Shown one piece after another: positions 2,258 through 38,087 of a stretch of 64,000 nt of DNA. A model generated the notes under the pieces. It made no database searches. It had not been told where the DNA came from and was given only the letters and a program-made list of their open reading frames with translations. How positions within the stretch are numbered: the first letter of the stretch is position 1; the number at the start of each line of letters is the position of its first letter. Origin of the DNA: Dehalococcoidia bacterium (GTDB lineage: Bacteria > Chloroflexota > Dehalococcoidia > SM23-28-2 > RBG-16-64-32); contig CAXXTF010000002.1 in assembly GCA_963665775.2 (NCBI GenBank), positions 1,056,001 to 1,120,000 of the forward strand, given 5' to 3'. The translations under genes were made by a program, and so were the position numbers.

Positions 2258-2683
2258 CTAGTCAGAGGGCCGCCGGCTATCCAGGTAGGCCTGCAGGATG
2301 ATGGCGGCCGCCGCGGCATCGCGGCTGCCGACGGGGGCTCTGCGACCTCCCCTACGGCGTCGCTTCCCCTCGGCTGGACGACGTCCGGCCTGGACGCTGG
2401 TCAAGCGCTCGTCCCAGGTGTGGACGGGAAGGGTCAGGCGATCAGCCAGGGCGTCGACCAGGGCCTGGACGCGATCGGCCTGGGGACCGACGGCGCCCGA
2501 CAGGGAGAAGGGCATGCCGACGACGAGCGCATCGGCCTGCTGCTCCTGGACGAGCCGAGCGATCGCCTCGACCGGATCGCCCGCGACCGTCATGGTGTCG
2601 ATGGGGATAGCGATGCGGGTGCGGTCGTCGGCGGCGGCGACACCGATGCGCCGTTCGCCGACATCGATGGCCAGAATGCGCAT
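2258..2683 (-). CDS. ruvX: YqgF/RuvX family pre-16S rRNA nuclease
   Basis: MRILAIDVGERRIGVA, VVGMP, WDERLTS, DAAAAAIILQAYL; canonical alaS-yqgF-mltG order. Confidence 0.93.
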   Translation of the reverse strand: MRILAIDVGERRIGVAAADDRTRIAIPIDTMTVAGDPVEAIARLVQEQQADALVVGMPFSLSGAVGPQADRVQALVDALADRLTLPVHTWDERLTSVQAGRRPAEGKRRRRGGRRAPVGSRDAAAAAIILQAYLDSRRPSD

Positions 2684-34674: not shown

Positions 34675-35043
34675 GCGGACCCAGTAGGCCTGTAGGCCGA
34701 GTTCTGTATCCCGACACTGTCAGGACGGTGACCATCTATCTGGGACGACGGTTACCCGCCGCCTCCTGCAGCCAACCCGAGGGTTTGGGCCGGGCGTCCC
34801 TTAACACCCTCCTATTTGGCCTTGCTCCGCGCGGGGTTTGGCCGGCCTCCAACTCACGCTGAAGCCGGTGGGCTCTTACCCCACCATTTCACCCTTACCC
34901 CGATGAATCGAGGCGGTATGTTTCTGTGCCACTTTCCGTCGGGTCACCCCGCCTGGGCGTTACCCAGCGCGCTGCCCGGAGGAGCTCGGACCTTCCTCCC
35001 CCCGCCAGAGACGGGGAGCGGTCACCCGGCCTACTGGGCCCGC
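34675..35043 (-). ncRNA. rnpB: RNase P RNA (bacterial type A)
   Basis: Minus strand GAGGAAGGTCCGAGCTC...GGAAAGTGGCACAGAAA...GGGTGAAATGGTGGGGTAAGAGCCCACC...GGAGCAAGGCCAAATAG...TAGATGG...ACAGAACTCGGCCTA; terminal P1 helix; extended -10 TGCTATACT just upstream. Confidence 0.97.
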
Positions 35044-35168
35044 AGCCAGTATAGCATCCCGCCACAACCTCCCCTGCGGCTCCACACGACTTACCTGTAA
35101 CGTCCGGAAGCGATACGCATCCCAAGCTTGTTGCAACCGAATCGACTATGTTAAGGAGACGAGAGCCC

Positions 35169-35387
35169 ATGGAATGCCCGATGTGCCGCGGCGGTGGAAG
35201 CTGCCTCGAGTGCGATGGGCTCGGCGCGGTCACCTGCCGGGAATGTGATGGGCTGGGCTGCGAGGTATGCCGGCGGAGCGGGGCGGAGCCATGCCTGCCC
35301 TGCAACAGCAGTGGCTCTTGCCGCCGCTGCCAGGGAGAGGGCCAGGTGGACACGGCTATACCACTTCCCTTCCGCTACGGCCACTGA
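35169..35387 (+). CDS. Small Cys-rich protein with DnaJ-type CxxCxGxG repeats
   Basis: AAGGAG RBS; six CxxC motifs, most followed by xGxG. Confidence 0.75.
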   Translation: MECPMCRGGGSCLECDGLGAVTCRECDGLGCEVCRRSGAEPCLPCNSSGSCRRCQGEGQVDTAIPLPFRYGH

Positions 35388-35408: not shown

Positions 35409-35822
35409 CTAGTCCAGGCCGCGATCCAAGGCCAGATTGGCCAGCTCATCGGCCCGCCTGTTCTGCTCCCGCGGGATGGCACGCACCTGGAAGGCAGCGA
35501 ACTGTCGCCGGAGGTCCACGAGCCGCCCGAAAAGGGGCTTAAGTCGGGCGTTGCGCACCCGGTACCGGAACTCCAGCTGACGCACGACGAGCTCTGAGTC
35601 CATCCTCAGTTCGACGTTTTGCGCCCCCATGGCCACCGCCGCCTCCAGGGCAGCGATGGCGGCCTGATACTCGGCCTCATTGTTGGTGGCTCGGCCGATG
35701 CGGCGGGAGATAGCGTGAATCTCTTTCCCAGCCTCATCATAGATCGCTGCCCCAATAGAAGAAGGGCCGGGGTTGCCGCGGGAAGCACCGTCAGTGAATA
35801 TAAGCCACGTTGCGTCAGGCAA
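35409..35822 (-). CDS. rnhA: Ribonuclease HI (Bacillus/actinobacterial type)
   Basis: FTDGASRGNPG, TNNEAEY, DSELVVRQ, IPREQNRRADELAN. Confidence 0.95.
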   Translation of the reverse strand: MPDATWLIFTDGASRGNPGPSSIGAAIYDEAGKEIHAISRRIGRATNNEAEYQAAIAALEAAVAMGAQNVELRMDSELVVRQLEFRYRVRNARLKPLFGRLVDLRRQFAAFQVRAIPREQNRRADELANLALDRGLD

Positions 35823-35829
35823 CGGCGCC

Positions 35830-37230
35830 CTACGGATTCACCAGCGTCTCGACGCTATCATCACGCACGACGACTCGATCGAGCAGGACGCGCAGAAGCT
35901 CCTGCCGTTGCGGGAAGGGGAGCCGGCCCCAATCGTCTCTCAGACGAACCAGAACCCCTTGACGTTGGCGCCTCCTCTCCGCCTCCGTCACCTCCTGCTG
36001 AACCAGGCGCTGCGCCTCGGCGAGCTTCTCCTCCAGCTCCAGTTGTTGAGTGGCCAAGGCCAGACTGAGGGAGCGCAACCGCTCTCCATTCATGCGACCA
36101 GATGTCGTGGAGTCAAGATGGCGCTCCAACCGCTTGTCCAGGCCCCGCATCCTCTCTCGCAACCGCCGGCTGCGATCCTCCCTCTCCTCCGGAGTGCCAG
36201 CCCCATCGCCGGGTTGGGAATGCGCCGACTGCGATTCGCCACTGAGGAGGGCTTGACAAACGGCCTCCTCCAGCTCTTCCGCACGGTGGGTGTGATAGTC
36301 GCATACGCTGCGGTTGGCACGGGACTCGCACTGGTAGTAGCGGTACTTGGCAGCGCGAACGGTGCCATCGCGTCGCCGCCAGCTCTGCTTGCGAGTGACG
36401 CCGATCATCTTGCTGCCACAGTAGCCGCAGTGGGCCAGGCCCGAAAGCAAGAACGGTGACAGCTGGCGGGACCCCATCACGGGCTGCCGCTGGTCCAGCC
36501 TCTCCTGCACATCACGGAAGTCATCCTGGGAGATCAAAGGGGCATGGCTGGCCGGCACCCGTACTCCGAACCGGCTGTAGGTCCCAAGGTAAGCGCGGTT
36601 CCTGAGGATATCCCGCACCGTGACCATACTCCAGAGACCACCTCGGCGGGTGCGGAGACCGTCGTCGTTGAGCCGACGGGCTATGCGGCGAATACCCAGC
36701 CCATCCTTCAGATACAGGCGAAAGATGTATCGGACAATGGAGCCCTCTTCAGGCATCACCACCAGGCGCCGCTTGGCCCCGACCCGATATCCGTAAGGGG
36801 GACGGCCCAGCACCTCGCCCTTGATCGCCTTGCGCCGCATCGCCTCCCTCACCCGATCCCCCAGGCGCCCGTTGGACCGCTGACTCGTCCAGCGCTCCAA
36901 CAGCGGACTGGCGGCATCATCGCCGTTCTCAAGACTGATGACGGTAACGCCCAGGCTGGCCAGCTGATAGTAGCGTCGGGCGGATTCGGTGAGGGCGGCA
37001 CCCAGGGTGGCCAAGTCTGACACCACCACGAGCAGGAAGCCACGATTCCCCTGCTGCCTGACGAACTCCACCATCTGGCGGAAGCCGGGCAGATCGCCCC
37101 CGTCCCTGTTAGCATCGAGAAAGGCGGCGGCCGCCTCGTACCCGTTACCACGGCAGAACTCCAGGAACAGCCGGCTCTGCTCAGCCAGCGAGTCGCCTTG
37201 CCTTTCCCTGAAGTAGCCTATCGCCCGCAT
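35830..37230 (-). CDS. Large serine recombinase-like protein, apparently catalytically inactive
   Basis: Resolvase-like N-domain, PPYGY, recombinase domain (IFRLY...GIRRIARRLN...ILRNRAYLG), zinc ribbon (LLSGLAHCGYCG...YYQC...C) and coiled coil; YxRVS is replaced by YFRER. Confidence 0.85.
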   Translation of the reverse strand: MRAIGYFRERQGDSLAEQSRLFLEFCRGNGYEAAAAFLDANRDGGDLPGFRQMVEFVRQQGNRGFLLVVVSDLATLGAALTESARRYYQLASLGVTVISLENGDDAASPLLERWTSQRSNGRLGDRVREAMRRKAIKGEVLGRPPYGYRVGAKRRLVVMPEEGSIVRYIFRLYLKDGLGIRRIARRLNDDGLRTRRGGLWSMVTVRDILRNRAYLGTYSRFGVRVPASHAPLISQDDFRDVQERLDQRQPVMGSRQLSPFLLSGLAHCGYCGSKMIGVTRKQSWRRRDGTVRAAKYRYYQCESRANRSVCDYHTHRAEELEEAVCQALLSGESQSAHSQPGDGAGTPEEREDRSRRLRERMRGLDKRLERHLDSTTSGRMNGERLRSLSLALATQQLELEEKLAEAQRLVQQEVTEAERRRQRQGVLVRLRDDWGRLPFPQRQELLRVLLDRVVVRDDSVETLVNP

Positions 37231-37231
37231 G

Positions 37232-37933
37232 CTACCTTACAAGCAGTATCCGCTCGCAGCTGACGCACTGGACCACTCCCAGACCAGCCCTCGCCTTCTG
37301 CAATATGGACATAGGAAGCGTTATCCGGCACCCCCGGCACATCCCCCGCTCGACGATGGCCACCGCCTGACCACTTCGCCTCTTCCTCAGCAACTGATAC
37401 ATGCTGTGCGCAGCCCTCTCGATCCCCTCCGATCGCTTGGTCTGTCTCTCCCGGAGCCGCTCTAGCTCGGGCTCGATCCGGCCTTTTTCGATCTCCATCT
37501 CCTGCTGGCCAGCGCGCCAGCGAACCTCCAGCTGAGAGAAGGCTGAGTCCACCTCCTTCAGCTGCGCCGCCGCCTCCTCTATCTCCACCAGTACAGCCAG
37601 GAGCACATCCTCCTGCTTGGCGATCTGTCCCTGGAGCGATGTGAGATCGGCCTGCAAGTCCGCCAACTCCTTGGGGTTCCCTATGCTCCCGCCGTAGAGC
37701 TTCTTCTCGACCGCCGAGGCCTTGCCGCGGATCTCATCCACCCCATACTCCAGATCCTTTTGGCGTGAGCGAAGCTCCGCGACAGCCTGCCGCTTCCCTT
37801 CCACCTCCCGTCTGGCCTCTACGAGCTCCTCGCTCTCGCCCAGTTGCTCCTCGATCTCTGCCAACCGCGACATAGCCCCATCCAGAGCAAGATCGATCTC
37901 TTGCAGGGCATATAAATCAGTGGCTACCGTCAA
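37232..37933 (-). CDS. Coiled-coil plus C4 zinc-ribbon protein (zf-RING_7/DUF164)
   Basis: LYALQEID start, long coiled coil, CRGC...CVSCERIL. Confidence 0.9.
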   Translation of the reverse strand: MTVATDLYALQEIDLALDGAMSRLAEIEEQLGESEELVEARREVEGKRQAVAELRSRQKDLEYGVDEIRGKASAVEKKLYGGSIGNPKELADLQADLTSLQGQIAKQEDVLLAVLVEIEEAAAQLKEVDSAFSQLEVRWRAGQQEMEIEKGRIEPELERLRERQTKRSEGIERAAHSMYQLLRKRRSGQAVAIVERGMCRGCRITLPMSILQKARAGLGVVQCVSCERILLVR

Positions 37934-38087
37934 AATAAGAGCACCGGTCTGGCTTTACGCCTGTCAGGGGATGGACAGTGTTTGCAGCGGGATTATAGAC
38001 TCAGAGCGAGAGTTTTTGCAAGATGGTCGGCCATAGCGAAATGCCCAGTCTGCCCTAACCACAACGCTAATTCTCAACATTACCGCC

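Follow-up and report, generated by a model that had tools for sequence, protein, structure and literature searches.

Serine integrases, or large serine recombinases (LSRs), are known as enzymes of mobile elements and as tools for genome engineering. The two arginines of their DRLxR motif, presumably R68 and R71 in the numbering of gamma-delta resolvase, are required for serine recombinase catalysis, and the resolvase-type catalytic domain of the LSR family also makes dimer and tetramer contacts. This report concerns an LSR-like gene in the genome of a Dehalococcoidia bacterium. The gene lies in a stretch of 64,000 nucleotides (nt), hereafter the window, which covers positions 1,056,001 to 1,120,000 of contig CAXXTF010000002.1 (assembly GCA_963665775.2, forward strand). 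An earlier note, made from the sequence of the window alone, had described the gene product as an apparently domesticated, catalytically dead LSR encoded inside a housekeeping operon. We report the architecture of the protein, the loss of its active-site residues, the conserved synteny of the locus, the purifying selection on the gene and its vertical pattern of inheritance. These data point to an exapted large serine integrase that became fixed in an operon, lost catalysis and was probably kept as a non-catalytic DNA-binding or bridging protein, likely together with the product of the CT398/DUF164-like gene directly upstream.

The CT398 family is widespread and poorly understood. In PMC3372290, the family member HP0958 is reported to protect RpoN from rapid turnover, and DUF164 genes are described as sharing synteny with rpoD, dnaG and NIF3. 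According to one of its figure legends, rnhA occurs in CT398-family neighbourhoods; the legend also notes, for Borrelia, an RNase P RNA gene downstream of the flgZ homologue. AlphaFold modelling in a preprint (bioRxiv 10.64898/2026.07.15.738315) predicts that mycobacterial and chlamydial members of the family bind the beta' subunit of RNA polymerase.

Results

Domain architecture of the LSR-like protein

The LSR-like gene and the regions encoding its domains were located in the window as follows.

35830..37230, minus strand: LSR-like gene, an intact open reading frame (ORF) of 466 amino acids with the full LSR architecture
36811..37230, minus strand: resolvase-fold N-terminal domain plus helix E, residues 1-140, from Pfam and alignment
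36481..36810, minus strand: recombinase domain (PF07508), residues 141-250, from Pfam; the most constrained part of the gene
36241..36480, minus strand: zinc beta-ribbon domain (PF13408), residues 251-330, with C268, C271, C301 and C310
35833..36240, minus strand: coiled-coil motif plus C-terminal beta hairpin, residues 331-466, with model helices at 347-376 and 382-433

Three Pfam domains were detected in the protein. The recombinase domain (Recombinase, PF07508) scored 79.1 bits at residues 160-248 and covered the full profile (1-102), and the zinc ribbon (Zn_ribbon_recom, PF13408) scored 53 bits at residues 261-328. The match to the resolvase domain (Resolvase, PF00239) was weak, at 29.0 bits against a cut-off of 23.3, and extended over residues 5-138 and profile positions 3-143 of 145. 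Almost the whole protein (residues 9-462) was matched by PHROG 95, an integrase family, with an E value of 1.2e-76. The zinc-ribbon cysteines C268, C271, C301 and C310 were invariant across 20 homologues; in a wider set of 29, the first three were invariant and C310 was present in at least 90%. A nearly invariant stretch of the recombinase domain was formed by residues 195-233.

An AlphaFold2 (AF2) model built from the 20 homologues had a mean pLDDT of 71, with a value of ~80 for the N-terminal domain. Beta-alpha repeats at residues 2-99, corresponding to the resolvase fold, were followed by helices at 107-135 (helix E), and the coiled coil was modelled as a long helical pair at residues 347-433 (347-376 and 382-433) with a pLDDT of ~85-93. 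The top matches of this model in a Foldseek search of the PDB were full-length serine integrases on DNA, with SPbeta (9y66; E 6e-18) followed by Bxb1, PhiC31 and A118, and the N-terminal part matched the isolated catalytic domains 3bvp (TMt 0.68), 3guv, 2rsl and 1gdt. The coiled-coil region was also covered by HMMER alignments to the SPbeta and A118 integrases. Both the full LSR layout and the intact Cys4 zinc ribbon read by the earlier note were thus found again by these methods.

The best NCBIfam match was NF041201 (XisF), which scored 66.9 bits where 375 would be needed, and the CcrA, CcrB and CcrC models were likewise far from their thresholds. None of the named LSR equivalogs in NCBIfam came anywhere near its cut-off with this protein, indicating that no curated family covers this group. 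In a protein atlas search, only Chloroflexota clusters labelled as recombinase family were matched.

Loss of active-site residues

The N terminus of the LSR-like protein is MRAIGYFRERQGD (M-R-A-I-G-Y-F-R-E-R), with YFRER in place of the YxRVS motif of active serine recombinases. A later stretch, VVVSDLATLGAA (V-V-V-S-D-L-A-T-L-G-A-A), has A75-T76-L77-G78-A79 in place of DRLxR. Hence Y6 and R8 were kept in the N-terminal domain, E9 and R10 were present at the valine and serine places, and A75, T76 and A79 were present at the aspartate and the two arginine places.

These positions were examined across the family in a MAFFT alignment of 294 members (200 close and 94 more distant) with 11 active-type LSRs, of which six came from the window's own genome and five were the nearest active-type representatives. 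All 11 comparators had a serine in the nucleophile column and an arginine in both DRLxR arginine columns. Serine was found in the nucleophile column of none of the 200 close members, 186 of which had a glutamate. Arginine was present at the first DRLxR arginine in 3 of 200 close members, with mostly S, T or G in the others, and at the second in 10 of 200, with mostly D, E, G or A. The substitutions that had been read by eye as YFRER and ATLGA therefore fell in the same columns of the alignment, and the retention of RVS and DRLxR by close homologues, which the earlier note had named as evidence that would speak against its proposal, was not the pattern seen. The YxR motif was wholly missing in 60 of the 94 more distant representatives, and the motif-less pattern extended to members at ~31% identity.

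The register of the DRLxR region was checked by a phmmer search of PDB sequences with the N-terminal 150 residues, which gave weak matches (3guv, E 0.021; 2mhc, E 0.065) and served only this purpose. In the alignment with TnpX (2mhc), sdlatlgaa was placed opposite kdmsrlgrn, and the MAFFT columns agreed.

As MAFFT puts a gap at the valine of YxRVS, the residue two places past the conserved arginine (R+2) was also counted in a gap-free manner. Among 189 close homologues, R+2 was T in 92 cases, S and R in 25 cases each, A in 18 and another residue in 29, and it is an arginine in the window protein. Because R+2 varies freely among the close members, no nucleophile is conserved. Judged from the alignments, the loss of the two DRLxR arginines is a more uniform and firmer sign of probable inactivity than the nucleophile position.

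Seven other resolvase domains in the same genome (G000) scored 57-123 bits, compared with 32.7 bits for the LSR-like gene. The seven genes that encode them (L081-L087) have canonical RVS and (D/S)RxxR motifs. Two of these, L085 and L086, encode near-identical LSRs of ~530 amino acids on different contigs and have tree end branches of 0.023 and 0.064, which suggests a recently duplicated or active mobile element.

Distribution, descent and selection

A word-indexed protein search detected at least 120 full-length relatives of 62-85% identity, and the named ones were all from Dehalococcoidia or Chloroflexi. An exhaustive search of representatives gave 177 clusters with E values of 1e-30 or lower; representatives of the active type (RVS plus DRxxR) began to appear at ~150 bits. 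Of 401 genomes sampled evenly from the phylum, 13 had a match at E <= 1e-40, and every one of these belonged to the class of the window, Dehalococcoidia. An even sample of Dehalococcoidia contained matches at E <= 1e-30 in 230 of 401 genomes (229 of 400 leaving out G573), nearly always one per genome. The distribution was all-or-none by family. The gene was found in 16/16 genomes of family f1, 30/30 of f13, 30/30 of f22, 5/5 of f19, 7/7 of f102 and 23/25 of f4, and in 0/13 of f5, 0/11 of f98, 0/12 of f24 and, in the phylum sample, 0/9 of f3. One match (G727:C11:17002-18453, minus strand) contained a TAG stop; a pseudogene, a sequencing error or recoding is possible at this locus.

The descent of the gene was examined with a FastTree phylogeny of 49 rows. 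The 40 motif-less members lay on one side of a branch with a support of 100 and the nine active-type LSRs on the other, the labels being assigned from the N-terminal motifs and the nine comparators being a small sample. The nearest group to the motif-less members consisted of four active-type LSRs of similar length. This topology fits a single origin of the motif-less members. Across loci, identity to the window protein co-varied with the identities of murE, fabG, rnhA, CT398 and yceD (Spearman 0.76-0.88) and of fabD (0.56), and the median identity to the window protein (~62%) was that of murE.

The ratio of nonsynonymous to synonymous substitution rates (dN/dS) was estimated by the Nei-Gojobori method for 27 non-overlapping independent pairs. 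The value for the whole gene was 0.12. By region, it was 0.135 for the N-terminal domain (residues 1-105) and 0.168 for helix E (residues 106-140), fell to 0.035 for the recombinase domain, and was 0.10 for the zinc ribbon, 0.175 for the coiled coil and 0.18 for the C terminus. The per-domain estimates called for in the earlier note thus ranged from 0.035 to 0.18, and every domain is under purifying selection, including the N-terminal domain that lacks the catalytic residues. Overall, the LSR-like gene is a single-copy, vertically inherited core gene of a large group of Dehalococcoidia.

Genetic organization of the locus

The features surrounding the LSR-like gene in the window are the following.

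37232..37933, minus strand: CT398/DUF164-like gene, 233 amino acids, coiled-coil hairpin plus C4 zinc ribbon; the constant upstream neighbour
35409..35822, minus strand: RNase HI gene rnhA, 137 amino acids, TTG start
34677..35037, minus strand: rnpB, bacterial RNase P RNA class A, 304 bits, at the end of the gene string
37992..38021, minus strand: promoter-like site upstream of the CT398-like gene, TTGCAA, 18 nt, TATAAT; a putative promoter from its sequence

The junctions were read directly. The stop codon of the CT398-like gene (TAG, 37234-37232) is followed after one base by the ATG of the LSR-like gene at 37230, with AAGG just upstream of the ATG, and the LSR-like stop codon (35832-35830) is followed after seven bases by the TTG start of rnhA at 35822. 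These are the spacings of 1 and 7 nt that the earlier note had given for the intact ORF. In the window, murE lies after rnpB, and a divergent yceD-rpmF-fabD-fabG group is located on the other side. No att-like repeats flanked the gene, the repeat scan having detected only weak two-copy chance matches; no phage genes or cargo were seen near it, and no tRNA gene was found within 25000-48000. The claim that the gene is not flanked by att-like repeats, cargo or phage genes was thus borne out, and neither part of the counter-case of a sporadic gene with att sites was observed, with att-like repeats searched at the window locus.

A scan of species genomes detected a relative of the gene in 307 genomes, and 80 of these loci were kept for comparison. 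Together with 12 further, more distant loci from the phylum sample, 92 loci were available. The CT398-like gene was directly upstream in 79 of the 80 loci, the 80th of which ends at a contig edge, and in 11 of the 12 more distant loci. The LSR-like and CT398-like ORFs were both intact in 85 of the 92 loci, and in 76 of these 85 pairs the gap between the CT398-like stop and the LSR-like start was -1 to +4 nt. The rnhA gene was directly downstream in 70 of the 80 loci but not in the other 10, and a copy of rnpB was present within 79 of the 92 loci, nearly always downstream of the LSR-like gene. At L096, L097 and L099, which hold the most distant members, rnpB came directly after the LSR-like gene, and no rnhA was located directly downstream. 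Gene order around the LSR-like gene was the same in more than 90 loci. These results indicated that the LSR-like gene is translationally coupled to the CT398-like gene in almost every genome and that this gene, not rnhA, is its constant companion.

Loci of class members without the LSR-like gene (L101-L105) were also compared. The CT398-like gene directly adjoined rnhA in four of these five, and rnpB was located just downstream in four of the five. At one of them, L103, rnpB directly followed the CT398-like gene. Because these relatives have the CT398-like gene, rnhA and rnpB directly adjacent, CT398-(rnhA)-rnpB is the older arrangement, into which the integrase gene was inserted once and then kept. 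An association of the RNase P RNA gene with the CT398 family seems to be older and wider than the LSR-like gene described here. Taken together, the synteny in more than 90 loci, the all-or-none distribution, the dN/dS of 0.12 and the co-divergence with neighbouring genes upheld the proposal of a domesticated, vertical gene over that of a mobile remnant.

A search for conserved sequences found 12-mers shared by at least 40 of the 80 loci in the promoter block, in rnpB and at three places inside the LSR-like gene only. The -10 block of the promoter, AGTCTATAATCC, was present in 45 of the 80 loci (at the same position in L001-L045). When located by its -10 pattern, the larger block TTGCAA-N18-TATAATCC...TGTCCA was found in 42 of 72 intergenic regions, with conserved bases just downstream of the -10 element. 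The 12-mers inside the gene, which encode WSMV, NKMIG and RYYQCE, were considered as a DNA site and rejected, being explained by invariant residues and codon bias.

Contigs from two metatranscriptome runs of one study aligned, with 0-1 differences, to segments of the CT398-like gene and to the 5' portion of the LSR-like gene. The junction of the two genes was crossed by one of them (36910-37267); depth was 3-5 and coverage was partial. This is a weak hint of expression, as DNA carry-over in the libraries is possible.

The CT398-like partner gene

The CT398-like protein contained both a coiled-coil hairpin and a C-terminal C4 zinc ribbon. In current Pfam, CT398_CC (PF24481) passed its cut-off (45.4 bits against 27), and Zn_ribbon_9 (PF02591) scored 24.8 bits, below its cut-off of 29.1. 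The earlier note had named this neighbour zf-RING_7, which we take to be the older name of PF02591; the C4 zinc ribbon stood, and the family assignment shifts to CT398_CC, the domain that passes. Among 29 orthologues, C199, C202 and C226 of the zinc ribbon were invariant and C223 was present in at least 90%. A prediction of the complex of the LSR-like and CT398-like proteins, made from alignments of 29 rows each, gave a score of 0.00 against a mark of 0.32, which is evidence neither way.

Other features near the locus

A 79-amino-acid, Cys-rich ORF with repeated CxxC(x)G motifs is located between rnpB and rnhA (35148-35387, plus strand), convergent with rnhA. By tblastn, 11 of 80 related loci were found to have it in the corresponding position, with 48-58% identity. 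Neither Pfam nor PADLOC gave a match, and the ORF may encode a genuine small zinc-finger protein. In a related locus, L091, a c-di-AMP riboswitch (RF00379, 88 bits; 2418-2547, minus strand) is located ~2 kb downstream of rnhA and is unrelated to the LSR-like gene.

Discussion

By fold and architecture, the protein described here is an LSR; it fails on the nucleophile, the arginines and the sites. It should not be filed as a recombinase, because these defining enzymatic features fail. That it does not act as a recombinase is very probable, and that its gene is a host gene maintained by selection is close to certain. The DNA-reading domains of an LSR are the most constrained parts of the gene and the former catalytic domain is still constrained, and a dimeric, sequence-specific DNA binder is therefore the simplest model. 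We consider specific DNA binding by the protein probable. As the recombinase and zinc-ribbon domains are very highly conserved, a conserved target site would be predicted.

The origin and action of such a protein can be outlined as follows. An integrase gene of phage or mobile-element type would have become fixed between a CT398-like gene and rnhA-rnpB in the ancestor of a large Dehalococcoidia clade. Its catalytic chemistry would then have been lost, with vertical inheritance as a single-copy core gene thereafter. The present protein would still fold and dimerise through the resolvase-like domain and helix E, and its recombinase and zinc-ribbon domains would bind a specific DNA site of ~40-50 bp. 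The coiled coil would bridge or synapse sites or recruit a partner, and neither cleavage nor strand exchange would occur.

The translational coupling of the two genes in almost every genome makes joint action with the CT398-like protein the likeliest arrangement, and the two proteins quite possibly work together, perhaps as a stoichiometric pair. The LSR-like protein would supply site specificity and place the CT398-type factor at chromosomal sites. A transcription-linked or nucleoid role is favoured, since the literature ties the CT398 family to sigma factors and RNA polymerase. We tentatively propose the following model as a whole: the LSR-like protein may be an adaptor without catalytic activity that binds DNA by sequence and bridges sites, pairs stoichiometrically with a CT398-like, RNA-polymerase-associated zinc-ribbon protein and directs it, and thereby transcription or the use of sigma factors, to set positions in the genomes of a large share of Dehalococcoidia.

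The earlier note had placed the protein with RNase HI, perhaps at R-loops. A wider form of this proposal is that, in place of general binding to DNA sites, it acts on nucleic-acid structures tied to its operon partners, for example R-loops with RNase HI or the transcription or maturation of RNase P RNA. The string of CT398-like gene, LSR-like gene, rnhA and rnpB is conserved (rnhA in 70/80 and rnpB in 79/92 loci), rnpB directly follows the LSR-like gene in L096, L097 and L099, and both rnhA and RNase P RNA are placed beside CT398-family homologues in other bacteria by a figure legend of PMC3372290. However, CT398, rnhA and rnpB were linked before the LSR-like gene arrived and are also linked in genomes that lack it, and the adjacency is thus inherited context. 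Moreover, 10 of the 80 loci have no rnhA directly downstream, and the link with RNase HI was not specific. The recombinase and zinc-ribbon domains of LSRs are known binders of double-stranded DNA, and the PDB matches of the model are DNA complexes. A role of this kind is therefore unlikely.

Several observations weigh against the reading of an inactive integrase that acts with its CT398-like neighbour. A hydroxyl residue (Thr or Ser) is present at R+2 in 117 of 189 close members, and on this alignment evidence the label "catalytically dead" carries a caveat; the family-wide loss of the DRLxR arginines upholds that label as the earlier note applied it, and the nucleophile position qualifies it. 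The distant representative P0138 still has YFRVS. Y6 and R8 hardly vary among the close members, which would also suit a residual chemical role. The mapping of residues to the active site depends on sequence alignment and on the numbering of gamma-delta resolvase. In the class tally, approximately eight genomes had weak matches (E > 1e-50), which could include active-type LSRs; one of them, G292 (L099), has a motif-less member with a CT398-like gene upstream. A variant in family f4 (L098, 4770-6029, plus strand; genome G045) has 419 amino acids, a degenerate N-terminal domain and a shorter C terminus. It has no CT398-like neighbour, which shows that the partnership does not hold in every lineage, and adjoins a PIN-like ORF and rplU. 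Matches of its strength (E ~1e-66 to 1e-69) were obtained in 23 of 25 sampled f4 genomes. The conserved promoter block was also considered as a binding or autoregulatory site of the LSR-like protein and rejected, as it looks like an ordinary strong -35/-10 promoter and differs in distant members.

The first of these points bear on the alternative of a still-active recombinase or invertase that uses non-canonical chemistry, with Ser or Thr at R+2, Tyr6 or residues supplied by a partner, and carries out a conserved chromosomal rearrangement. The near invariance of Y6 and R8, the Thr or Ser at R+2 in a majority of close members and the dN/dS of 0.135 for the N-terminal domain would all be expected of such an enzyme, and XisF and SpoIVCA are chromosomal, vertically kept developmental LSRs. 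Against this, the window protein itself has an arginine at R+2, and 72 of 189 close members have Arg, Ala, Lys, Gly, Met, Val, Pro, Gln, Leu, Asp or Ile there. Each of the two DRLxR arginines is missing in at least 190 of 200, and the whole YxR motif is missing from most of the more distant representatives (60/94). No flanking inverted or direct repeats usable as sites were found, and the constant gene order in more than 90 genomes gives no sign of an invertible or excisable segment. Residual recombination is consequently very unlikely.

The suggestion of an att-site blocker, also made in the earlier note, amounts to a role in immunity, in which the protein would occupy attB-like sites, or bind incoming integrases through its coiled coil, and so block integration by LSR phages. 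The retention of the DNA-binding domains and coiled coil of an integrase without catalysis is what a decoy would need, and the genome also carries active LSR elements. PADLOC gave no match for the LSR-like protein or RNase HI, and for the CT398-like protein only coiled-coil noise at E ~1e-3; the context (murE, rnpB, yceD, rpmF, fabD and fabG) is a housekeeping one. Defence genes are usually patchy and fast-evolving, whereas this gene is core-like, single-copy and slow-evolving and is translationally coupled to the CT398-like gene within a housekeeping operon. In addition, its very strong conservation would mean that hundreds of species share a single fixed target, an expectation difficult to square with diverse phages. 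The blocker proposal did not gain support from these results, and we regard an immunity function as highly improbable. A decaying prophage or integrative-element remnant without a function of its own, to which the phage-integrase origin (PHROG 95), the lost active site and the several active-type LSRs of the same genome might point, is hardly credible because ORFs are intact in 85 of 92 loci, dN/dS is 0.12 for the whole gene and 0.035 for its recombinase domain, many families have the gene in all of their sampled genomes, synteny is conserved, divergence follows that of the housekeeping neighbours, and no cargo, att repeats or tRNA genes are nearby.

If the adaptor model is true, this family would be the first known exaptation of a catalytically dead serine recombinase, as far as the literature searched shows: no dead, vertically inherited serine recombinase and no report of this Chloroflexota family was found in full-text literature that comprised main texts and few subscription journals. 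The CT398/DUF164 family would gain a DNA-targeting partner; no member with an integrase-derived partner was found in the literature searched. A CT398-type protein with a seemingly obligate, translationally coupled partner that carries a readable DNA-binding module would be of practical value, as mapped binding sites could reveal where, and on what, such a protein acts. For serine integrases in general, the locus would mean that the DNA recognition and coiled coil of an LSR are reusable for a host function.

The upstream neighbour shares the coiled-coil hairpin and C4 zinc ribbon of the CT398/HP0958 (FlgZ)/MSMEG_4306/DUF164 family. Neighbourhoods with rnhA and RNase P RNA are shown for that family in a figure legend of PMC3372290, and the same arrangement is found in Dehalococcoidia without the LSR-like gene. 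The phage serine integrases (SPbeta SprA, A118, Bxb1, PhiC31 and PHROG 95) share the four-part architecture of the LSR-like protein and gave significant sequence and fold matches. In contrast to them, the window protein has no serine nucleophile and its family has no DRLxR arginines, and the gene is without att sites, cargo or a mobile context and is a single-copy, vertical member of a housekeeping operon. XisF (fdxN element) and SpoIVCA (skin) are likewise products of integrase genes kept by a host chromosome for a host purpose, but they keep the active site and excise an element, whereas in the LSR-like family the active site is gone and there is nothing to be excised. A further near analogy, in mode of action, is offered by TldR, derived from TnpB, which is likewise a mobile-element enzyme that lost catalysis and kept sequence-specific nucleic-acid binding for the host. 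TldR has an unrelated fold and is RNA-guided, and the likeness is one of a possible way of working and not of membership.

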